DNA of 64,000 nt from an uncultured virus (IMG/VR IMGVR_UViG_3300032073_000001) (IMGVR_UViG_3300032073_000001), one strand, 5' to 3'. Counted from the first letter of the stretch, positions 47,850 to 59,246 are shown. A program made the numbers and translations. The notes: generated by a model from the letters alone, not told the origin.

Positions 47850-48088
47850 TGTAATGGTCTCGTTTTACCTTCAACAGTAATTGTCTCTAAATCATAATTA
47901 TCCATTATAATTAGACCTAGCCTTTCTTTAAGCATATCGAGTAATAATGCCCATGAATCAAGCACAGTCTTAGAATTATCCAATGCGAGTTGCATTTCTT
48001 TGTAATTAAGAGCAATTTCTAGAACTTCTTTTGTAGCTCTATCGGTAATTGTTATTCCGTTAACTAAACGTTTATGCTTAAAAATCAT
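47846..48088 (-). CDS. Hypothetical protein
   Basis: 80 aa, GGAGG RBS, coupled to neighbours. Confidence 0.7.
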   Translation of the reverse strand: MIFKHKRLVNGITITDRATKEVLEIALNYKEMQLALDNSKTVLDSWALLLDMLKERLGLIIMDNYDLETITVEGKTRPLH

Positions 48089-48174
48089 TTTTCCACCTCC
48101 GCGTCATACTCTTCCTGTGTTAGGAAGGTAACGACTTCGCCGTCTAGCTCCATGGTCCAGTTATCATCATTCAT
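48085..48174 (-). CDS. Acidic microprotein (29 aa)
   Basis: MNDDNWTMELDGEVVTFLTQEEYDAEVEK; first ATG after early promoter, TAAGG RBS, ATGA overlap with next gene. Confidence 0.55.
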   Translation of the reverse strand: MNDDNWTMELDGEVVTFLTQEEYDAEVEK

Positions 48175-48208: not shown

Positions 48209-48243
48209 ATTATACCACACTGGCCAGGAATGTACATGCTTTT
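48209..48243 (-). promoter_or_regulatory. Early promoter AAGCA-TGTACA-N16-TATAAT
   Basis: -10 at 48209-48214, -35 at 48231-48236. Confidence 0.8.
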
Positions 48244-48264: not shown

Positions 48265-50124
48265 CTACTTACGGTATATTCCAGGGGAGAATATAGAGAT
48301 GGTTTCTTCTTTACCCTTTACTTTGATATCACCAATCTTCTCACAGAAATATCCTTCTGGGAGTTGTTTCATTGTAAAGCTTGAGATGATAGTTTTGTAA
48401 TCTATATATTCATGACGGGCAGCAGTTGCCTCGAGTCGAGCAGCAAGGTTGACTGCATCTCCAATAACCGAATAGTCAAATCTGGATTCACTACCCATGT
48501 TACCAACAATACAATCCCCGGTGTTAATGCCAGTCCCAACATTGATATCAGGAAGACCACGTTCTTTATAGATTTCTTTGAGTTCATTTACTTTTATTTC
48601 AATTTCCATTGCTGATTTAACTGCCATTTCAGCGTGATTTTTACAAGGTAATGGTGCATTCCAAAATGCCATTATGCAGTCACCCATATATTTGTCAATT
48701 GTTCCTCCATTTTTGAGAATGATTTTTGTCATTGCATCGAGGAATTCATTGACTAATTCTACTAATCCTTCGGGATCATCTTTATTCTTATAATATTCCG
48801 ATATTGGGGTAAATCCACATATATCCATGAATAAAAATGTCATTTCCTTTCTATCACCCCCAAGCTTCATTAAACTTGGATCTTTAATCAACATATTCAC
48901 CATATCAGGTGAAAGATATGTACCAAACTGACCTTTAATTTGTTGTCTTAATTTAAATTGGATCCAAAAGTTATTAAAACTTGCATGCGCGAAGACTATT
49001 ATATATAATACTATAGCGAATGTCCAATCAAGGAGATATAGTGAATTCGTCCAAAAATAGCTGGAGAAATAGAAGCTTACAGCACCAACAACGCCAAAGG
49101 CGCCTAATCCGATTATCGCAGGAAAGAAATAAACACATGAAAGAATCAACAGAGACCCAATTAGAATTAGACCTATTTCCGCCAAATCAGCCCAATAAGG
49201 ACGGATTATTGAATCCTCTGAAAGGATCGAAGATAGAGCCGATGCTTGAATCTCATGGGGAAACTTTAACCCTAACGGAGTCAGAATCTCAGGCACAATC
49301 CCAAGAGCCGAAACACCAATCAGAACTGTTTTCCCACGAAGATCTGGAAGAGTGTCAACTCCCGCTTCATAACGATCGTGCGTTATTGAATAGTTAATAT
49401 AAGCTGTTCCATCCGAATTTGTTTTTGAATGTAATTTTGGTGGTATAAAAAGATCTACTATTCCAAGATCTGGATCAGTATTAATTGTATAACCCTTTGT
49501 CTGATTCTCAGCTCTAATAATTTCTACCGATAATGATGGATATCTTTGACCATTAACTTGTACAACTAAAGGAAACTTACGTACTATTCCATCAACTTCT
49601 GGAGCTACATTAGATATTCCTGCTCCCCAAGCATGTCTTTCAACTATTTCTACATTTGTTAGAATTTTTTCGTATTCTTGAAGAAATTGCATAGGATCGC
49701 CTTCGCCTTTCATGGCAGTTCCAACATATGGAGCTACGTCTGATCTTCCACGAGGATCGGCTTTTTGTGATAGAACCACTCCAGAGTCTTTAATCCACGA
49801 TTCAAATGCTGGATCTCCTCCAAACCTGTCGGCCTCTGGGAACATAATCGTAAAAGCCTTAATTTCGGCATTTGCATTTATTAAGTCAGATATCATTTGG
49901 GCATAGTATTGACGAGGTAATGGAAATTGACCCCATTTTTCTAATGTACCTTCTCCAATTTCATAAAGAATTACATCTTCGTCTTTTTGTTTGGGTAGTG
50001 ATTGAATTTTTGCGTCAAATCCCATAAGCTGGATTTGTTCAATTTGAGGAACATTGGATATTTTAAGAAACAATCCAAATGCAATAACAGCTATAACTGT
50101 CCAAATGCTTGTTAAATATTTCAT
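48265..50124 (-). CDS. CHASE2-domain class III adenylate/guanylate cyclase
   Basis: N-terminal TM, G.FP.PR and DGIVR CHASE2 motifs, three TM helices, FMDICGFT, DKYMGDCIMAFW, GINTG, DYSVIGDAVNLAARLE (K/D specificity residues indicate ATP). Confidence 0.95.
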   Translation of the reverse strand: MKYLTSIWTVIAVIAFGLFLKISNVPQIEQIQLMGFDAKIQSLPKQKDEDVILYEIGEGTLEKWGQFPLPRQYYAQMISDLINANAEIKAFTIMFPEADRFGGDPAFESWIKDSGVVLSQKADPRGRSDVAPYVGTAMKGEGDPMQFLQEYEKILTNVEIVERHAWGAGISNVAPEVDGIVRKFPLVVQVNGQRYPSLSVEIIRAENQTKGYTINTDPDLGIVDLFIPPKLHSKTNSDGTAYINYSITHDRYEAGVDTLPDLRGKTVLIGVSALGIVPEILTPLGLKFPHEIQASALSSILSEDSIIRPYWADLAEIGLILIGSLLILSCVYFFPAIIGLGAFGVVGAVSFYFSSYFWTNSLYLLDWTFAIVLYIIVFAHASFNNFWIQFKLRQQIKGQFGTYLSPDMVNMLIKDPSLMKLGGDRKEMTFLFMDICGFTPISEYYKNKDDPEGLVELVNEFLDAMTKIILKNGGTIDKYMGDCIMAFWNAPLPCKNHAEMAVKSAMEIEIKVNELKEIYKERGLPDINVGTGINTGDCIVGNMGSESRFDYSVIGDAVNLAARLEATAARHEYIDYKTIISSFTMKQLPEGYFCEKIGDIKVKGKEETISIFSPGIYRK

Positions 50125-50198
50125 ACGTATATGTCTAGAATAGACCCTTTCTTCGATTGTGGAAATCCATATTTAAAATATAAAAATCTTCTTCTCAT
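50121..50198 (-). CDS. Microprotein (25 aa)
   Basis: MRRRFLYFKYGFPQSKKGSILDIYV; TAATG overlap upstream and ATGA overlap with the cyclase. Confidence 0.5.
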   Translation of the reverse strand: MRRRFLYFKYGFPQSKKGSILDIYV

Positions 50199-50362
50199 TA
50201 ATTTATCCAACAAACTGGATAAACACACCAATATGGATTTGCAAAACCTAACATCCACAATATAAGAATCCATAATGGGATTTGAACCCACGTTTTTCCT
50301 TTAGACCATTCTCTAAATCTTATAGCATACGGGGCGAGTTTATTAAAAATCCAATTTGACAT
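50198..50362 (-). CDS. Trp-rich small membrane protein (54 aa)
   Basis: MSNWIFNKLAPYAIRFREWSKGKTWVQIPLWILILWMLGFANPYWCVYPVCWIN; TAATG overlap with curlin-like gene. Confidence 0.65.
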   Translation of the reverse strand: MSNWIFNKLAPYAIRFREWSKGKTWVQIPLWILILWMLGFANPYWCVYPVCWIN

Positions 50363-51192
50363 TAGTTTTGTGTAACACTAACCGAACATCCACCTGATGT
50401 TTGGCAATTTTGAGTTAATGAATATGATTGAGCTGTATTACTAGTTTGAGTTAAATTAAATGTAGTGGGATTTGTACCAGTCAAAGTTACTGTAGCATTA
50501 TGAGCTCCATTACCAGATTGTGTGATTGTACCTGTATTTCCGTCATTGTATGTTATCAATGAAAGTGTCTTAGCACCATCTGTTTCTTGTTTAACAAAAA
50601 ATTCATTGTTATCTGAATAATAATAAATTGTAGCTGTGTGTCCGTTATAATTATTTAAACTACCATTTCTTTGATAACCTACTAGTTTGTTATCTTCTCC
50701 ATGAATATCTAAATTTAATCTATGGCCACCACCTTCATCTCCATCGTTTGAAAAAGTTGTATCATTTATATCTGTCAATATTGTACCTTGACCCCAACGA
50801 ACTACGTTGTTTGGATGATTAATATGAAATCCTATAACTGATTGAGAACAATTACCGGCTCCTCTTGTACACTTTTGTTCAAAATGTAAATTATTACCAG
50901 AACCGTCTAAATCACCACCATAAGCTAATCCTGATCCCCAATAGTCAACCCAAGATATTTTGTTATTATTACCTTCTTGTTTAAAGAGTAGTGTGTTATT
51001 ATCGTGAGCAATAGAAAGATTGACTTTATTATTATAACCTATCTGTTCAATATTCAAATTCAAGTTATCTGTTGATACACCTGATACTTGACTTATGATA
51101 ACTGAGTTTGTATTATCCGCTTTGACGTATGATGATAACGACAGACTGACCATCGCCAACACTGATAAGATTTTTCTTACCTTCATTTTCAC
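50362..51192 (-). CDS. Secreted curlin-repeat (CsgA/CsgB-like) protein
   Basis: Signal peptide ending VKA; QxGxxN repeats (IEQIGYNNKV, FKQEGNNNKI, ITQSGNGAHN); N/Q/G-rich. Confidence 0.8.
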   Translation of the reverse strand: MKMKVRKILSVLAMVSLSLSSYVKADNTNSVIISQVSGVSTDNLNLNIEQIGYNNKVNLSIAHDNNTLLFKQEGNNNKISWVDYWGSGLAYGGDLDGSGNNLHFEQKCTRGAGNCSQSVIGFHINHPNNVVRWGQGTILTDINDTTFSNDGDEGGGHRLNLDIHGEDNKLVGYQRNGSLNNYNGHTATIYYYSDNNEFFVKQETDGAKTLSLITYNDGNTGTITQSGNGAHNATVTLTGTNPTTFNLTQTSNTAQSYSLTQNCQTSGGCSVSVTQN

Positions 51193-52270
51193 TCTCCACT
51201 GTTGTATTTGAATCTATCGGAATTCTTACCGATATAACTCCATTTACTTCTCTATAAAACCAAATTTGACCAGCACCTTGATCTATTATTGTATTATATT
51301 GTGTATTTTTATCAAATCCTAAAGCAGTACCAACTATATTTCCGGAACCACCTGCAGATGATAAAATTTGTTTATTTTTTAAAATATTTATTTCTTCTAA
51401 AGCAACCAATATGTCTTGTAAAAAGTCGACATCAAGTAAATCCATATCGAGTTCATTGAATTCTAAATCATCTTCTGCTAAAAAATCATCGGCCAGATAA
51501 TCAGTATCGAGCTCAGTGAAATCAAGTAGGCCATTAGAATTGACCGCAGTATTAGCTTGAGTTTCCTCTTGTTGATCCTGTATTTCTTTTGGTGGATTAA
51601 CAATAAACATATTGTCAATCATATTTAAATTTATATTTTGAAGCGTAACTGGTTGTGCTGGTGCTGTATCATAACTTGACACCATTGTGGCTTGATATGC
51701 TTCTGTAAGGACTACTACACCGCCCTCATTTGTTACCGTAATTTCTCCTGACGGTGAACAATCACCATCTATAGTACATTCAGTTTCCGGAAGGAGAATT
51801 ACTAAACTTCTTCCCAATTCATCAACTGAAGTCGTAAAATCCGTCCCACGTACGCCCACTGTGGCGGTTGGAGTATCAATTACTATATTTTCTTTAGGTA
51901 ATAAACCTAATCTGCCAGTAGAAAATCTTGCAGTACCACTGACCATTTTCATTCCAATTCCACCATCTTTGGTTTTAGAATTGTAATAATATTCGTATAA
52001 TGTAACTTCCGTATGTTCAGTTAATCTAAGTACAGAAGAATCAATAAAATCTAATTTTAATCGACCATTAACTGTTTCAATATGATCCATTGCAATAACG
52101 CCTAAACCAAGATCAGTGGCAAATGACTCACCTTCACGAGTAATTCCACCACTGCCCTTGTGTTCAGTTATATTGCCAACATCATTGGCAAAAGCTGTTG
52201 AACTAATCAGTAATAGACTAGTCGCCAGTATCTTTTTGTTTAATGTCAACAATGCCATTCTCTGTGTCAA
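51113..52270 (-). CDS. Secreted FecR-domain protein
   Basis: Signal peptide ending AFA; D.IET..G...L.F.D.S...L...T, TPTATVGVRGTDF FecR motif; acidic D/L-rich linker. Confidence 0.85.
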   Translation of the reverse strand: MTQRMALLTLNKKILATSLLLISSTAFANDVGNITEHKGSGGITREGESFATDLGLGVIAMDHIETVNGRLKLDFIDSSVLRLTEHTEVTLYEYYYNSKTKDGGIGMKMVSGTARFSTGRLGLLPKENIVIDTPTATVGVRGTDFTTSVDELGRSLVILLPETECTIDGDCSPSGEITVTNEGGVVVLTEAYQATMVSSYDTAPAQPVTLQNINLNMIDNMFIVNPPKEIQDQQEETQANTAVNSNGLLDFTELDTDYLADDFLAEDDLEFNELDMDLLDVDFLQDILVALEEINILKNKQILSSAGGSGNIVGTALGFDKNTQYNTIIDQGAGQIWFYREVNGVISVRIPIDSNTTVESENEGKKNLISVGDGQSVVIIIRQSG

Positions 52271-52946
52271 AATCCGCGTTTATTATTCCATAACATCCAC
52301 TCACGCCAGTTGGGCATGTACCAGATGATTGAATAATATCGATATCTCCATTTGAACCTATGTATTCCATTGTTAATGAATTATCTGCACCATCGGATTG
52401 TGCTGTTAAGAAGTTATTTGAACTTCCTACAACATCCACATTCCAAGTTACATCATCAGCATTAATATCAATGTTCCATACGTTTGATCCACCGGTTATA
52501 TCTAAATCAAAATCCAATCTTTCAGCTGAAGCTGTATAACCCCAATCTATATCGAAAGTATTTGAAGAACCGGTTATGTCAACATCCATTACAGATGAAT
52601 CAGCACTTCCACCATAACCTACGTTCCAATCCCATATGTTACTATTTCCAGTTAACTTTAAGTCAACATCAGTAGAATCAAATAGTGTTGGACCAAAGAT
52701 TTGGTTCAAGTTACCTATCATATCTATATCCATTGTGACAGTGTTACCAGTCAAAACCCAATCAGTAGCACAATCTGCACTTGAGATAGTTCCACAAAGC
52801 TTATTACCATAACCGATTTGGTCTACGTATAGCCTTAGTGTATCTCCAGATTGATCTAAAAGAATTTTGTTATCATTGGCTCCAGCGAACACAACTACGG
52901 GGCATAATAAAAGAGCGAATGCGATATATCTTTTAAAAATATTCAT
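52218..52946 (-). CDS. Secreted acidic curlin-like beta-solenoid protein
   Basis: Signal peptide ending VFA; repeats DQIGYGN, DMIGNLN, KLTGNSN, DITGSSN, DITGGSN, DVVGSSN at about 23-26 aa spacing. Confidence 0.72.
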   Translation of the reverse strand: MNIFKRYIAFALLLCPVVVFAGANDNKILLDQSGDTLRLYVDQIGYGNKLCGTISSADCATDWVLTGNTVTMDIDMIGNLNQIFGPTLFDSTDVDLKLTGNSNIWDWNVGYGGSADSSVMDVDITGSSNTFDIDWGYTASAERLDFDLDITGGSNVWNIDINADDVTWNVDVVGSSNNFLTAQSDGADNSLTMEYIGSNGDIDIIQSSGTCPTGVSGCYGIINADFDTENGIVDIKQKDTGD

Positions 52947-53923
52947 CCTCTTATTTCCTCTATTGTTTCAGGGGTAATAACTTCTTCCGGAATGTTTTCT
53001 GGATCTTCTATTGGCTTAGTATATATAATTTCAGCTTCGTCTATAATCTGTTCGACTTTATTTTCAATGATTTGTTTCATTGGCCAATTTATTTTCCAAA
53101 AATCTAATTCTTCCCCCTGGTATATCATTTCTAACACAGCTGCTTCAATTGTTGAGCGAAGCGACCGTGTCACCGATTCGTTTTCTGTCATCCCATCTTC
53201 TATTTCTACAAGTTGAGTGTCCATATCAACGAATTTAAATACGTCATAGCCATCAGCGATCGACAAAATGGTTTTTGACGTTTGCACATTTAGTAAAATC
53301 TCACCTGTCAATGTGCTGACAGCTCTTAATGAAACAGTTACTATGTCTCTTCGGTATTGTTGTGAATAACCAATACCAAGAGTTCGAGCTCCCATTCCCC
53401 CAGTCTCGATATTAGTATCGAATCCAATGATACCTCCTTCAAGAATGATCCCTGCGAAAAGAAGCGGGGCTAACCCAGTTTCATCCTTTTCACCATATTG
53501 TTCTCTTGTAGTACGAACGATTTGACGTTCTCTTGTAAGATGATCTATTCCTACGCGTTCTACTACTCTAAACCATTGTCCTTTTCCTGCATTTTTTAAT
53601 GCGTCAATAAGCATTGTATCACCGCCTTGTGATACTGCTGTACTGAACATTGCAGCATTTCCTTTTTGTTTTCTTTGTCCTGTTTTATCAGGAAATCCGT
53701 ATACTGCTACGACTATTTGTTTTTCTGCTGGTGGTAAATTTCTTAATTCTTCATGTGTAGGTAACTCAACAACTTCTGGTGATTCTACACACGCTAAATT
53801 TAATGCAGGATTACAATTTGTTGCTGATAATCCTCCTGGCGGGACAATAGAAGCACATCCTTGCATAAGAAGGACTCCTATTAATAATATAAGCTTCTTA
53901 TCCACCAGTCGATCCAGCGCCAA
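52943..53923 (-). CDS. csgG: Curli secretion channel CsgG
   Basis: Lipobox MQGC; LPP....VVAVY.F.D.TGQRK, STAVSQG...MLI.AL, WF.VVER.G...L..ERQIVR, ILEGGIIGFDTN. Confidence 0.95.
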   Translation of the reverse strand: MALDRLVDKKLILLIGVLLMQGCASIVPPGGLSATNCNPALNLACVESPEVVELPTHEELRNLPPAEKQIVVAVYGFPDKTGQRKQKGNAAMFSTAVSQGGDTMLIDALKNAGKGQWFRVVERVGIDHLTRERQIVRTTREQYGEKDETGLAPLLFAGIILEGGIIGFDTNIETGGMGARTLGIGYSQQYRRDIVTVSLRAVSTLTGEILLNVQTSKTILSIADGYDVFKFVDMDTQLVEIEDGMTENESVTRSLRSTIEAAVLEMIYQGEELDFWKINWPMKQIIENKVEQIIDEAEIIYTKPIEDPENIPEEVITPETIEEIRG

Positions 53924-54458
53924 TTGGAATTACTATTTGTGTTTCTGTTCCATCTTCAGCAACAATAGTCATAACAATAACTTGTTCACCCTGAGTACAA
54001 GCCCATAGACTTTCATCACATATCGTTTTTTGATATGTAATTGTATTTCCTTCTAGGACAAAACTACCAAATGTTGTTTCTGTACATGTTCCTGCAGCTA
54101 TTGCTTCAGCTGTACATGATTGAAATAATGATTCTACAAGCTGTTTAGATAATTGAGCATAAATTCTCGATTCGAGATTACGCATAAATTTTGCTAATGT
54201 TGTATTTTCTGCATCTCTTTGTGCTGCTTGTAATGCACTCTCTATTTTTTCAGCTATTGCTTGTCTTCTACTAAATTCCTGATTCTCAATTGTAAGATAA
54301 TGAGATGAGGTTCCTACTCCGCTGAACGAAGGATTTTTAAATTCATGTACTAATTCATCGCCATATATATCTTCAGCGGATCCAAGTAAAAAAATAACTA
54401 TAAAAGCCCATATGGCTATTTTAGAATTACGACTTATTAGTGGTTTTATTTCTTCCAT
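53898..54458 (-). CDS. csgF: Curli assembly factor CsgF
   Basis: Signal peptide then ELVHEFKNPSFSG...L.IEN (CsgF F.F.NP.FGG motif), F.RNLESRIYAQLS; adjacent to csgG; start likely 54458. Confidence 0.88.
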   Translation of the reverse strand: MEEIKPLISRNSKIAIWAFIVIFLLGSAEDIYGDELVHEFKNPSFSGVGTSSHYLTIENQEFSRRQAIAEKIESALQAAQRDAENTTLAKFMRNLESRIYAQLSKQLVESLFQSCTAEAIAAGTCTETTFGSFVLEGNTITYQKTICDESLWACTQGEQVIVMTIVAEDGTETQIVIPIGAGSTGG

Positions 54459-54756
54459 TTTTTTTCTCCATAAGAGCTTCTTTTTCTTCGAGATCTTCGA
54501 TGAATTTTTGTCGCTCTCTGTATTCAAGTACAACATTTACTTTTTGTTGTAATCTAATCATATCTTGATCAAGCATTCGTATTTGATCAATTAATCGAAT
54601 TAATGCAAAATGCATTTCTTCTATTTTAGGTTCCAATTCATCTGAAATAAATTTCCACACATAATATATGAAATATCCCATACCCACAGCCAAAACGACT
54701 GGGAACCCATAATCATTTATTAACGCTACAATTGTAGGATCTTGGCTTACTTCCAT
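54427..54756 (-). CDS. Single-TM coiled-coil membrane protein
   Basis: INDYGFPVVLAVGMGYFIYYVW helix followed by a heptad pattern. Confidence 0.75.
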   Translation of the reverse strand: MEVSQDPTIVALINDYGFPVVLAVGMGYFIYYVWKFISDELEPKIEEMHFALIRLIDQIRMLDQDMIRLQQKVNVVLEYRERQKFIEDLEEKEALMEKKNGRNKTTNKS

Positions 54757-55049
54757 TAATCCCTCCTAGCATCAATTTTACCGTCTTCAACAAAGTTTGA
54801 CGCTCTTGCTACTCTGTCTACTGGCGGTGTTAATTCTAAAGCACTACTTACCAATAAGTCTATTTTTACAATCTCATTATTCATTGTAGTAACTCTTGTT
54901 TCTAAGCTTTTTGTAAACATAGTAAGAGTACTAATTGAGTCAACGAGACCTCCTAGTATCTGTTTTAATATCAAAAATATAAAATAGCCCATAACTAATG
55001 AGCCGGCGATAGGAGTACCTACCTCCATTATAAGTTCGAATATTTCCAT
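54756..55049 (-). CDS. Single-TM coiled-coil membrane protein (paralogue of next gene)
   Basis: IMEVGTPIAGSLVMGYFIFLIL; ATG at 55049 is 5 nt after TATAAATA. Confidence 0.75.
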   Translation of the reverse strand: MEIFELIMEVGTPIAGSLVMGYFIFLILKQILGGLVDSISTLTMFTKSLETRVTTMNNEIVKIDLLVSSALELTPPVDRVARASNFVEDGKIDARRD

Positions 55050-55054
55050 AGTAC

Positions 55055-55062
55055 TATTTATA
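55055..55062 (-). promoter_or_regulatory. T4-type late promoter TATAAATA heading the curli operon
   Basis: Exact consensus. Confidence 0.85.
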
Positions 55063-55082: not shown

Positions 55083-55412
55083 CTAAAAGGCTACTGATTC
55101 TCCACAACCACAGGACGCAGTTGCATTAGGATTTATGAATTTGAATTCTGAATTGAGTCCCTCAGTAATGTAATCTAAGGTTAATCCAGTAAAATTGTGA
55201 AGTTGGCCAGTTTCTACTACTATAAGAAACTTTCCGTAGTCTATGATATGATCATCGCCAGTGACTGTATCAGCAAAAGCGATAACATATTTAAAACCGT
55301 TGCAACCGCCAGGATAATAACCAATTCTGACAGTATCATTCCCCTCATTTTGGGTTTGTTTGAGTAATTGTTGAATTGCTTCATTAGTCAACTCGATCAT
55401 TAGGTTCTCCAT
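55083..55412 (-). CDS. iscA: A-type Fe-S carrier IscA/SufA
   Basis: GGCNGFKY, LDY..EGL...F.F.NPNA...CGCGES. Confidence 0.93.
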   Translation of the reverse strand: MENLMIELTNEAIQQLLKQTQNEGNDTVRIGYYPGGCNGFKYVIAFADTVTGDDHIIDYGKFLIVVETGQLHNFTGLTLDYITEGLNSEFKFINPNATASCGCGESVAF

Positions 55413-55821
55413 TGTGCTGTCTATGGGCTTTTTTATCTTCCCAATTTCTTATTGCCTGACGAATCGAATCTTCAGCTAATACAGAACAATGAAGTTTGAT
55501 AGCCGGAAGTTCTAATATTTCGGCAATATCTTTGTCTTTAACAAGTTTTGCCTCTTCTATGGTTTTACCCATTAGCATATCAACGAATAATGAAGAAGAT
55601 GCGATAGCGGATCCGCATCCATAAGTTTTAAATTTAACATCAACGATTTCTTCGTTGTCATTCAATTTCAGTTGTAGCTTCATGACATCACCACACGCGG
55701 GTGCGCCTGTCATTCCGGTTGCTACATTGGATTCTTTTGGATCGAATCGGCCTACAGAGAATTTCTCTGGAGAATTTAATACATTATTAAATCTGTCTAT
55801 TACCTTCTGCGAATAGGCCAT
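55384..55821 (-). CDS. iscU: Fe-S scaffold IscU
   Basis: MAYS.KVID, GAPACGDVMKLQ, FKTYGCGSAIASSS, LPAIKLHCSVLAED. Confidence 0.96.
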   Translation of the reverse strand: MAYSQKVIDRFNNVLNSPEKFSVGRFDPKESNVATGMTGAPACGDVMKLQLKLNDNEEIVDVKFKTYGCGSAIASSSLFVDMLMGKTIEEAKLVKDKDIAEILELPAIKLHCSVLAEDSIRQAIRNWEDKKAHRQHNGEPNDRVD

Positions 55822-56103: not shown

Positions 56104-56111
56104 TATTTATA
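56104..56111 (-). promoter_or_regulatory. T4-type late promoter TATAAATA
   Basis: Exact consensus overlapping the lysozyme stop. Confidence 0.75.
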
Positions 56112-56562
56112 TATTTTCAAGTCTCACCATGAGCCTTTCTGCTCTATTTGTGACTTGTTTATGCCATCTTGAATCTCTTCCTTCGACAGCTGCTGTTTTC
56201 CAATCACCGCACTGAAGCGCTGTATTGTGTTTTTTAAATTTAGAAAGTCGAGTATAACCCATGTTAAACATCATATTTGCAATGATCTGTTTTGCTTCCT
56301 CGGGATATCCATCCCAACCTTCATGCAATTTTTTACAATCGGCAATTACCGTTTGTACATCCTTCTCAAAAACTTCATAAACGCGTTGTTCGGTAACTGG
56401 TGTGCCCAATGGTTGACCCTTTTCTTGATCACCATCAATAACCAAATGACCGATACCAAAAGTAGCATAGCCAAGATGATCGTTATAAATTTCATTGACC
56501 TGTCCTTCGTCTATTTTTAGTTGCTCTCTTAATTTATTAATATCCATTTGTGGTATCCTCAT
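56107..56562 (-). CDS. e: T4-type lysozyme (GH24) endolysin
   Basis: L..DEG....IY.D.LGY.T.GIGHL catalytic E-D-T motif, NM.FNMG, S.W..Q..NRA.R; start may be the internal MDINKL. Confidence 0.92.
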   Translation of the reverse strand: MRIPQMDINKLREQLKIDEGQVNEIYNDHLGYATFGIGHLVIDGDQEKGQPLGTPVTEQRVYEVFEKDVQTVIADCKKLHEGWDGYPEEAKQIIANMMFNMGYTRLSKFKKHNTALQCGDWKTAAVEGRDSRWHKQVTNRAERLMVRLENI

Positions 56563-56968: not shown

Positions 56969-58387
56969 TTAAACGTCGTAGTTGTCATTTCTTGCCGTGT
57001 ATGGTGTTAAAGCAAATCGTTTAGATGGATTTACAGATACACCAAAAAGTGTTATTAAATCTCTATTACACAACATCTCTGATGCTGTATTTTTAAGCGA
57101 TAATCCTAAATGTATTAGATAGGATCTATTATTAAATGTTATTGTATGTTCAATAACTGGTCTTTCATCGACCGTTTCCATATGTCTTGCTTTAGATAAA
57201 CCAATAAGATCAGATTCAAATTTCTTACCATTCTTTTTCCAAAATACTTTTTTATCTTTTACCTTAAGATCATCAACCATTAACATTGATGCATTTGTTC
57301 CATTGCCGGTATCAAGTTTAGCTCGTATTGGATCATCTTCCATACCTTCAAGGATAATTGTTTCAATAAAACCTGCTTCAAGTCTAAAGAATTTAGTTCT
57401 ATTATTTTCTTCTAACAAATATTTTAAAAATATATCAAATAATTTATTGTCTGATTTTTTACCTACAGATTTTTGTGTATCTAAATCATATGCGTTATAA
57501 TGTGACTTTACACCAGGAGATCCATTTACCTCTAAAATATAAATCTCTCCATCAACTATACAATGATCTACACCAACATAATATCCTCCACTTACTCGTG
57601 AAGCTGCAAGAATTATTTCAATTTCCCTTTCCTTTAATATATAAGGAACCGTATCTGCGCCTTGATGAACATTTGATCTAAATTCAGAACCTTTAGCCGT
57701 GATTCTTTTTGCTGCACCTAATATTTTACCATCAACTACAAGAGTTCTGATATCATATTCCATTTCTAAGAATTCTTGCATCAACAGCTGTGCATCAAAC
57801 TTCCATAAAGATTGACATACAGACCTTAAAGAACTCATCGAATCAACTTTTGTTACACCTACACCTTGCGTTCCGGTCAAAGTTTTAACAATTACAGGAA
57901 ATTTACTACCAATTTGTTTATGAGCAAATTCGATACTTTCATCGTTGTTCAATATAACTGTGCGCGGTGTTTTAACATTTGATCTATTCATAGCAATTGT
58001 AGTTGCCATTTTATTATCACATAACATCATGGATTCAAGATCATTAACCATAAAGAATCCCGCGGTTTGTAATGTAGATACTAAAGCTTGTCCTACCTGA
58101 GTCGCAATTGCTCCACCTCTTGTAAATACGATTGTTGAATCTATATTACATGTAACCTTTTTACCTTCTCCATCGATATTACGAATATCAACTTTTCTCA
58201 GTTCAATATCGGCATCACCTAAATATGCTTTATCAATATCAATTAAATTGCATTCTATATCATTAAACGAACATACATCAGCCATAACTTTTGCTGCTGT
58301 TCCATCGTCCAGTGAATTAGCCAATATAATTACAGACATTTTCATGTTCTTTTCTTTGGCTTCTGTGATATAGTTATAATCGTACAT
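56969..58387 (-). CDS. rimK: RimK-like ATP-grasp ligase fused to a retropepsin-like (RimB-type) protease
   Basis: FPVIVK.L.GTQG.GV, MQEF, DIR.LV, FRSN.HQG, GVD, LEVN.SPG; C-terminal RAKLDTGN...ERPV..L..R. Confidence 0.9.
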   Translation of the reverse strand: MYDYNYITEAKEKNMKMSVIILANSLDDGTAAKVMADVCSFNDIECNLIDIDKAYLGDADIELRKVDIRNIDGEGKKVTCNIDSTIVFTRGGAIATQVGQALVSTLQTAGFFMVNDLESMMLCDNKMATTIAMNRSNVKTPRTVILNNDESIEFAHKQIGSKFPVIVKTLTGTQGVGVTKVDSMSSLRSVCQSLWKFDAQLLMQEFLEMEYDIRTLVVDGKILGAAKRITAKGSEFRSNVHQGADTVPYILKEREIEIILAASRVSGGYYVGVDHCIVDGEIYILEVNGSPGVKSHYNAYDLDTQKSVGKKSDNKLFDIFLKYLLEENNRTKFFRLEAGFIETIILEGMEDDPIRAKLDTGNGTNASMLMVDDLKVKDKKVFWKKNGKKFESDLIGLSKARHMETVDERPVIEHTITFNNRSYLIHLGLSLKNTASEMLCNRDLITLFGVSVNPSKRFALTPYTARNDNYDV

Positions 58388-58668: not shown

Positions 58669-58936
58669 TTTCCCATTCCTCTAGTTTTTTAAGTTCTCGA
58701 TCTACAATTTTTTCTAGATCTTCTACATCGGGTAACATATCCCAATCTTCTTCGGTGGTGGAGCTGACAGGGGTCGAACCTGCGACCTCATCCGTGCAAG
58801 GGACGCGCTCTCCCAACTGAGCTACAGCCCCACGTTTTTTCTTTCCAAATATTCTATCCCAATTATCTGCATATTTGTTTTCATCAGATTTTCTTCGTTT
58901 AGAACCTTTTCCTCCATGCCATTGATCAGTCATCAT
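58652..58936 (-). CDS. Small conserved protein (WHGGKGS motif) whose frame reads through tRNA-Ala
   Basis: 94-aa open frame coupled to the SET gene and groES; the middle ~25 codons are the tRNA. Confidence 0.55.
   Translation of the reverse strand: MMTDQWHGGKGSKRRKSDENKYADNWDRIFGKKKRGAVAQLGERVPCTDEVAGSTPVSSTTEEDWDMLPDVEDLEKIVDRELKKLEEWENENKT
58756..58831 (-). tRNA. trnA: tRNA-Ala (anticodon UGC)
   Basis: 76 nt GGGGCTGTAGCTCAGTTGGGAGAGCG...CTTGCAC...GGTTCGACCC...CAGCTCCACCA; G3:U70 alanine identity pair, encoded CCA. Confidence 0.96.
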
Positions 58937-59246
58937 ATTCTGGTAGTTGATAATAAACTACGACTTCTTCCTCAGCTTTGATATTTCTAATAGCGAACAT
59001 TTCTCTTTGCCATCCAAGATCATGATCTTGATTCCAATAGATCCATGCATTTGGTGTTTCTGAGTGATTTACAAAACCTCCTAATGGTGTTCTTATCCAT
59101 TCAGATCGTTGTATTTCCCATACGTGAGATATACCTAAAAAAGTTCCTGCAGGAATAGTTTCGGTTGCAACTAATCCTAAACCATGACTTGCTGGTTGTA
59201 TTGTAAGATCATGCCTTAAAGGCGTATAAGTACCTTCGAAATTCAT
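58926..59246 (-). CDS. SET-domain protein (putative lysine methyltransferase)
   Basis: HGLGLVA...I..G, GFVNHS..PN, A.RNI...EE....Y SET motifs. Confidence 0.85.
   Translation of the reverse strand: MNFEGTYTPLRHDLTIQPASHGLGLVATETIPAGTFLGISHVWEIQRSEWIRTPLGGFVNHSETPNAWIYWNQDHDLGWQREMFAIRNIKAEEEVVVYYQLPEYDD

Follow-up and report, generated by a model that had tools for sequence, protein, structure and literature searches.

The minus strand of a 64,000-nucleotide (nt) stretch of DNA from the uncultured virus IMGVR_UViG_3300032073_000001 (the whole stretch is hereafter "the window") carries, at 48265-55062, a block of genes for a curli-type outer-membrane pore (CsgF and CsgG), two curlin-like repeat proteins, an exported FecR-fold protein and a putative CHASE2 adenylate cyclase. 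This block is real, intact, strongly conserved and already described: it is the viral type VIII secretion system (T8SS)-FecR-adenylate cyclase region reported from SAR11 podo- and myoviruses (Wittmers et al., 2022; PMC9599517), and the coupling of these genes, which an initial annotation of the window had treated as new, thus repeats a published module. The interest that remains lies in what the block does, and in reading its FecR protein as a retention module. To this the present analysis adds a FecR protein that has a RIN-like head and is not a Fec-type iron regulator, FecR-RTX neighbors of the related bacterial cyclases, and the rejection of a kinase label. The FecR evidence suggests a pore-tethered sensor that would report the state of the fiber or of export as cyclic AMP (cAMP).

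A conserved viral block of curli, FecR and cyclase genes

Ten minus-strand open reading frames (ORFs) were found between 55070 and 48265 (ORF listing). The initial annotation had described them as ten overlapping ORFs behind a TATAAATA promoter; the ORFs and the conserved motif stand, but some of the overlaps and the placement of the motif relative to the first ORF do not. The features of the block are as follows.

55055..55062, minus: T4-type late-promoter motif TATAAATA, 5 nt upstream of ATG 55049
54756..55049, minus: small single-pass membrane protein 1 (TM1), phrog_18771; listed ORF extends to GTG 55070
54427..54756, minus: small single-pass membrane protein 2 (TM2), paralogue of TM1, phrog_18771
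53898..54458, minus: CsgF-like protein with signal peptide (PF10614, phrog_35372); longest ORF to 54536
52943..53923, minus: CsgG outer-membrane lipoprotein pore (PF03783)
52218..52946, minus: acidic curlin-like protein (isoelectric point 4.05) with signal peptide, modeled as a beta-helix
51113..52258, minus: exported FecR-fold protein (PF04773); longest ORF to 52270
50362..51192, minus: second curlin-like protein, with QxGxxN repeats and a conserved C-terminal Cys pair
50198..50362, minus: 54-amino-acid (aa) small protein in a variable slot
50121..50291, minus: 56-aa ORF, probably not a gene, overlapping the 54-aa gene in another frame
48265..50124, minus: predicted inner-membrane CHASE2 class III adenylate cyclase (PF05226 and PF00211)

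The corrections concern gene starts. TM1 probably begins at ATG 55049 rather than at GTG 55070, a start that would leave the TATAAATA (55062-55055) within the first ORF. CsgF probably begins at 54458, which places its signal peptide at the N-terminus, and FecR at 52258, the start at which the ESM Atlas record of this protein likewise begins; the long CsgF and FecR overlaps are an artefact of choosing the longest ORF. Pfam confirmed the parts list of the initial annotation for CsgF, CsgG, FecR and the CHASE2 cyclase, and gave no match for the two repeat proteins, TM1, TM2 or the two micro-ORFs of the window block. PHROGs held full-length families for 7 of the 10 ORFs, among them TM1 and TM2 (which fall in one family), CsgF, CsgG, FecR and the cyclase, which indicates that the block is already present in sequenced phages.

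The published region starts with one or two "histidine kinases" and continues with CsgF, CsgG, CsgA/B, FecR, a second CsgA/B and an adenylate cyclase (PMC9599517), and the window block has the same genes in the same order and orientation, with small genes in front. The GenBank annotations of phages HTVC008M (KC465899) and Melnitz (MZ577097) name the block genes, whose order in both is that of the window, and the main texts on these phages (PMC7029224, PMC9004378) contain no occurrence of FecR or cyclase. For the viral block as a whole, an alphaproteobacterial affinity and transcripts in metatranscriptomes have been reported, with FecR and the viral curli proteins recorded at each of the 65 GOV2.0 stations (PMC9599517). 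The block is abundant in ocean phages: at least 600 IMG/VR stretches carry the cyclase, and the FecR family comprises 239 clusters at E <= 1e-30.

Linkage was evaluated in two samples of viral loci, both made up of the closest relatives of the window, one anchored on the cyclase (the best 80 of at least 600 viral stretches with a cyclase) and the other on CsgG. CsgF, CsgG, FecR and cyclase share order and strand in all 46 cyclase-anchored loci with at least 5.6 kb upstream; at least two small transmembrane (TM) genes are found in 44 of these, two curlin genes in 29 and one in 17, the second curlin-like gene being missing from a subclade of phages. Where two curlin genes are present, the FecR gene is placed between them. 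Anchoring on CsgG gave 33 viral loci with 5.2 kb or more downstream, and every one of these has both FecR and cyclase, so that the co-conservation of FecR and cyclase with csgFG, on which the initial annotation had made its proposal depend, holds in 46/46 and 33/33 loci. When the distance matrices of 41 loci were compared by partial correlation, the highest values were those of TM1-TM2 (0.78), CHASE2-FecR head (0.57) and FecR head-CsgG (0.56), which come from related and linked genes with no significance test and are to be read as soft.

The T4 late-promoter consensus is well established. Counted over the entire window, TATAAATA shows no enrichment (17 sites vs. 11.2 expected, with 8 of 100 shuffles reaching 17). 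At the level of the block, 40 of 47 distinct related loci have NATAAATA immediately in front of their first gene, usually as the sole TATAAATA within the 5.5-7 kb block, and the window encodes a gp33-type late-transcription coactivator (PF16805, 41325-41567). From the conserved NATAAATA position and this coactivator it can fairly be inferred that the block is transcribed late, as a single unit. Sigma-70-like sites within the block are at chance level (40 vs. 33.1 +/- 5.2), and no convincing terminator was found downstream of the cyclase gene. Directly past the cyclase stop lies a sigma-70-like promoter (TGTACA, 16 nt, TG-TATAAT; 48209-48236, minus) that precedes a 29-aa ORF (48085-48174) and delimits the late unit on its downstream side.

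The window comes from a T4-like myovirus genome, with genes for gp32, gp59, the late-transcription coactivator and baseplate proteins gp5, 6, 8 and 25, as well as RNase H, lysozyme, IscU and IscA. No cultured phage has a gp32 more than 56% identical to that of the window, and Melnitz and cyanophages come nearest. Among related records, IMG/VR contig L003 has the same block at 98-100% identity, and the nearest record (G001, 49 kb) has a CsgG identical to the window copy. IscA and IscU genes adjoin the block upstream (55083-55821, minus) and are a recurrent iron-sulfur neighbor. Further upstream are genes for a RimK-like ATP-grasp protein of 472 aa (56969-58387, minus) and a small SET-domain protein (58926-59246, minus), both unusual for a T4-like phage.

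Membrane proteins, cyclase, pore and curlin-like proteins

The two small genes in front of the block belong to a family of ~100-aa proteins that have a single membrane segment and share a conserved helix; TM1 itself has one hydrophobic segment and the conserved helix, and falls in no Pfam family. Among 50,697 phage records, tblastn found the small TM gene in six, all of them HTVC008M or Melnitz and all block carriers. The label "histidine kinase" given to these two genes (PMC9599517) was considered and rejected, as none of 69 family members matches a kinase domain; the family alignment likewise contains no invariant His.

A second set of small genes occupies the slot that separates the cyclase from the second curlin gene (window 50124-50362; L004-L077), which is a hot spot filled among phages by small proteins of four or more unrelated families, several of them hydrophobic toward the C-terminus. 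The initial annotation had proposed two microproteins here, of which one is retained. The 54-aa ORF recurs at 93-94% protein identity in contigs L006 and L008 with many synonymous third-position changes, and on this pattern it is a real but lineage-specific gene; its product has a Trp/Leu-rich middle (read by eye) and no TM-like segment at the threshold of our hydropathy scan. The 56-aa ORF gave weak or partial tblastn matches only (52-61% identity, in L006, L007, L008 and L014) and has no relative among the small gap ORFs of related loci, and is therefore unsupported as a gene. In two loci an IscU-like gene is inserted into this slot (L032:8131-8646, L034:7987-8502).

The last gene matches CHASE2 (PF05226, E 1e-31) and Guanylate_cyc (PF00211, E 8.4e-20). 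A hydropathy scan indicates four hydrophobic segments, with CHASE2 between membrane segments and the cyclase domain behind them. The initial annotation's report of intact catalytic motifs is borne out by six residues (D434, K478, D482, D550, N559 and R563) that are invariant in 11 diverse phage cyclases at 44-62% identity to the window copy, and which we take to serve metal, substrate and transition state. Among solved structures, adenylate cyclases score best (6fht, 5.5e-33; CyaB 3r5g, 3.3e-32), and the mean p-distance is 0.27 for the nearly invariant catalytic domain vs. 0.57 for CHASE2. Identity of the window cyclase is 40% to HTVC008M and 31% to Melnitz. The gene is thus predicted to encode an inner-membrane CHASE2 class III adenylate cyclase with its catalytic residues intact.

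Both components of the pore were recognized. CsgF matches PF10614 (E 9.4e-9, 36 bits against a cut-off of 25.8) and phrog_35372 (2.8e-36), and its translation has an FxNPxF motif right after the signal peptide; against PDB sequences it gave chance-level rows only (E 0.5-1), with no match to solved CsgF. CsgG matches PF03783 (E 8.2e-49) and E. coli CsgG (3x2r, 6.5e-44), with the lipobox Cys aligned. CsgE, CsgC and CsgD had no Pfam match in the block ORFs or in 64 other window ORFs, in agreement with the initial annotation, which had recognized no CsgE. Alphaproteobacterial curli systems are likewise described without these three proteins (PMC9599517).

The two repeat proteins, read as curlin-like by the initial annotation, can be placed through their families, since both window copies are missed by the Pfam Curlin_rpt model. 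Matches to Curlin_rpt were obtained for 18 of 48 members of the acidic family and 4 of 32 of the second, and profiles of these phage families detect the repeat proteins beside alphaproteobacterial csgFG, all of which (13/13) are Curlin_rpt proteins. By these profile matches, the two Sec-exported block proteins are probably divergent members of the curlin family. For the acidic protein, an AlphaFold2 (AF2) model (predicted local distance difference test, pLDDT, 83.7; predicted template modeling score, pTM, 0.80) is all beta, and VIA aligned it with the SufD beta-helix at Z 16.3 and with the CsgA fibril 8enq at Z 11.3, the fibril match having a root-mean-square deviation (rmsd) of 8.9. Foldseek found no match for this model in the PDB at E <= 0.001, so that the beta-helix matches come from VIA alone, and the protein is accordingly best called beta-helical in its predicted form. 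The Melnitz paper assumed the fiber genes to be missing (PMC7029224 / PMC9004378), a claim that fails in view of the curlin matches of the block families, and that Wittmers et al. had already contradicted (PMC9599517).

These genes also bear on a different function for the pore. The Melnitz authors argued that CsgGF is a lysis-timing device (PMC7029224 / PMC9004378), namely a gated secretin or pinholin. On this reading of the block, the cyclase would set the timing and the fibers would be irrelevant, and the conserved late-promoter motif as well as a phage lysozyme gene 1 kb upstream of the block (56107-56562) would suit such a role. We consider this improbable, given that curlin-family genes with signal peptides occur in every locus, two in 29/46 and one in 17/46. 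In addition, an outer-membrane pore alone cannot depolarize the inner membrane. The argument was, moreover, made under the presumption that the fiber genes were missing (PMC7029224 / PMC9004378).

The FecR-fold protein and its bacterial relatives

The FecR protein (385 aa) matches PF04773 at E 3.9e-11, a domain present in 42 of 42 family members and the sole Pfam domain of the protein. In the AF2 model, a signal peptide is followed by a beta-sandwich head (28-220) and, after an acidic linker, by a small C-terminal beta domain (311-385). The linker (224-310) has 87 residues, with 22 D/E vs. 3 K/R and conserved Leu. By VIA, the head aligns with PupR 6ovk over 135 residues (Z 15.3, rmsd 2.7), and residues 28-122 align with 73 of the 76 residues of the RIN structure 5ix9 (Z 10.8, rmsd 2.3, 19% identity). 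The 5ix9 structure is the RIN domain of the MpIBP adhesin, a periplasmic plug that lodges a type I secreted adhesin in its outer-membrane pore (PMC5550230; bioRxiv 10.1101/198937). In its predicted fold, the phage FecR head thus matches the plug of retained RTX adhesins. By Pfam and by its N-terminus, the protein has neither RTX repeats nor a type I secretion signal, and is of Sec type.

The C-terminal domain was also considered as a curlin repeat: hhalign against the two curlin families gave P 0.016 and 0.0035 at probabilities of 3-9%, a weak result that is a hint only, and the ESM Atlas held no usable match bearing on this question. Long proteins with a FecR head of this kind were not recovered by a word-based search (0 of 1449 candidates at E <= 1e-5), and the best 150 matches of a FecR profile search were all phage-type or fragmentary (125-622 aa). 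A complex prediction for CHASE2 (26-314) with the FecR head (28-236) scored 0.00 and counts neither way.

The name FecR, the IscU and IscA genes directly upstream, the IscU-like gene inside the block in L032 and L034, and a published suggestion (PMC9599517) would all be compatible with an iron or cofactor uptake and sensing device, in which FecR would be a regulator of the iron-citrate type and CsgG an open import pore. The protein itself does not fit this description: its FecR domain comes directly after the signal peptide, with no N-terminal cytoplasmic anti-sigma domain and, in the hydropathy scan, no TM-like segment, and no extracytoplasmic function (ECF) sigma factor or TonB-dependent transducer was found among the 64 window ORFs scanned. 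An identity as a Fec-type iron anti-sigma factor was rejected for the phage protein on these grounds. Its bacterial counterparts, described below, keep company with adhesins and secretion genes, being of RTX type in 6 of 9 cases and accompanied by secretion or LapG-type genes in 4 of 5 loci; we regard the iron device as very improbable.

To place the two halves of the block in bacteria, the neighborhoods of related cyclase and csgG genes were compared. The 80 nearest bacterial cyclases are mostly from Alphaproteobacteria (29-42% identity), and none of their loci has CsgG, CsgF, curlin or TM genes within 10 kb, while a FecR-family ORF lies within that distance in 21 of the 80. CsgG at 43-50% identity occurs in 7 of 401 alphaproteobacterial genomes, with CsgF and Curlin_rpt proteins adjoining in all seven, and none of these csgFG loci has FecR, cyclase or TM genes within 10 kb. 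Since the halves were found only apart in these bacterial loci, the block is a phage-borne fusion of two alphaproteobacterial modules with two phage-specific genes.

This separation could mean that two unrelated functions merely share one late operon, with curli fibers serving aggregation ("sibling capture") or as a superinfection shield, and FecR and the cyclase acting as a separate environmental sensor, without signaling between them. The bacterial counts (0/80 cyclases near CsgG or CsgF; 0/7 csgFG loci near FecR or cyclase) speak for this, the fiber-based ideas are those in print (PMC9599517; PMC7029224 / PMC9004378), and viral curli regions without a cyclase exist (PMC9599517). On the other hand, the order of the genes is strict in 46/46 and 33/33 loci even where cyclase identities fall to 44%, the FecR gene has its place among the curlin genes, covariation links the FecR head to CsgG (softly, as noted above), and the Melnitz cultures are reported without clumping (PMC7029224 / PMC9004378). 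Two unconnected functions therefore seem to us unlikely.

The FecR-family ORFs beside bacterial cyclases are of particular relevance to the phage protein. In six of the nine scanned, an N-terminal FecR domain is followed by RTX repeats, and three of these six also bear cadherin/Ig domains. Across five bacterial loci scanned for neighbors, two (L126 and L150) encode a Peptidase_C93, i.e., a LapG-family protease, L101 encodes HlyD and an ABC transporter, L105 encodes HlyD, and L088 has neither a LapG-type nor a secretion gene. The arrangement in L126 (2699-12136) and L150 (4036-12208), both annotated as Bradyrhizobium, is Peptidase_C93, then a FecR-headed cadherin/Ig/RTX protein of 1500-1900 aa, then a CHASE2 cyclase, as in a Lap-like system with the cyclase in the place expected for LapD. 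Another arrangement was seen in a marine alphaproteobacterial single-cell genome of ~1.3 Mb (L098:575-15642), where an operon with a C39-like ABC transporter and a fusion of a cyclic nucleotide (cNMP)-binding domain to HlyD (cNMP_binding::HlyD) continues with a CHASE2 adenylate cyclase, two small cNMP-binding proteins, DUF1538 and P-II, and faces HlyD, an ABC transporter and a FecR-RTX protein on the opposite strand. Its gene content suggests type I secretion that is gated by cAMP from the sensor cyclase of the same operon. In the literature searched, no paper ties CHASE2 to LapG, and none joins CHASE2, type I secretion, an adenylate cyclase and an adhesin.

Proposed signaling and comparison with known systems

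The explanation that we favor, with a probability of about one half, is that of a viral curli-FecR-cyclase block in which FecR couples the state of the pore or fiber to cAMP. Late in infection, the phage would install a curli-type export and fiber system on a host without one; the periplasmic FecR head would relay the state of the pore or fiber to the CHASE2 domain; and the cyclase would respond with cAMP acting on host cNMP receptors, the target being placed in the host because a search of five phage records revealed no cNMP-binding domain. It is tempting to speculate further, as a version of this explanation that is included in the above estimate, that the FecR head is a periplasmic plug, its acidic linker passing through CsgG and its C-terminal domain lying outside with the fiber. 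The protein would then be a physical link from the cell surface to the cyclase, rather like a miniature retained adhesin. Soft support for such a tether comes from the CHASE2-FecR head and FecR head-CsgG partial correlations, and from the acidic linker in combination with a CsgGF lumen that is predicted to be positively charged (PMC7029224 / PMC9004378). The fuller claim, that FecR is a pore-lodged tether by which the pull or assembly of the fiber is turned into cAMP, and that the same logic operates in the alphaproteobacterial circuit of FecR-RTX protein, LapG, cNMP-gated type I secretion and CHASE2, is in our judgment unlikely.

Several observations weigh against coupling through FecR, and against its tether version in particular. 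We know of no curli substrate that remains lodged in CsgG, and adhesins of type I secretion systems do not carry the Sec signal seen in the FecR protein. None of 42 FecR-family members matches Curlin_rpt, and by hhalign the C-terminal domain bears only a weak resemblance to the two curlin families (P 0.016 and 0.0035). A cNMP-binding domain was found in none of the five phage records searched, two of which are complete genomes. Among the related bacterial cyclase loci, 59 of 80 have no FecR-family ORF found by the profile, and the partial correlations across viral loci are soft. Finally, FecR and cyclase do not always occur in viral curli regions, above all in podoviruses, whose copies often lack the cyclase (PMC9599517).

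Whatever its signaling, the block supplies SAR11 and OM43 hosts with an envelope system that they lack. If FecR-CHASE2 does read the surface fiber or pore, this would be a new form of viral sensing of the exterior of the host cell, and would explain a widespread adhesin-cAMP circuit in bacteria.

Among known systems, the pelagiphage region of Wittmers et al. is the closest: it has the gene set and order of the window and likewise lacks CsgE, CsgC and CsgD, there is no structural difference between the two, and the window is another copy from an uncultured myovirus, in which the published labels of histidine kinase (for the small genes) and iron regulator (for FecR) are unsupported (PMC9599517). 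HTVC008M and Melnitz have full synteny with the window block, except that in them no small gene separates the cyclase from the second curlin gene, and that their second curlin is longer. Their block is placed between gp32 and tail genes, whereas that of the window lies ~8 kb from gp32, next to iscU/iscA and lysozyme.

Bacterial curli (type VIII secretion; CsgA-G in E. coli) have in common with the window the CsgG pore and an adjoining CsgF, and curlin-repeat proteins adjoin in the bacterial loci (7/7). In contrast to the window, the seven alphaproteobacterial curli loci are free of FecR, cyclase and small TM genes over the flanking 10 kb, and the window curlin-like proteins, unlike the bacterial ones, are so diverged that the Pfam model misses both.

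On the signaling side, CyaD1, CyaD2 and CyaK of Sinorhizobium meliloti offer the same CHASE2 and class III cyclase architecture within the Alphaproteobacteria, with an outer-membrane-associated protein, NsrA, acting upstream of the cyclase and a FecR-domain protein, SMc02177, in the regulon; unlike the phage, this system has no curli pore or fibers, responds to a plant signal and has the Crp-type regulator Clr as its output (PMC5498481, PMC7529298). The "BiofilmReg" operon of Burkholderia places an exported FecR-domain protein beside a CHASE2 sensor with a link to biofilms, and differs from the phage block in its histidine kinase and response regulator output, its LysM domain and the absence of a secretion pore (PMC5192318). 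Lap-type adhesins (LapA/LapG/LapD; the RIN domain of MpIBP) differ from the phage FecR protein in that the latter is only 385 aa long and Sec-exported, with CsgG as the only pore in its block, but the two share a layout of plug, flexible linker and distal domain.

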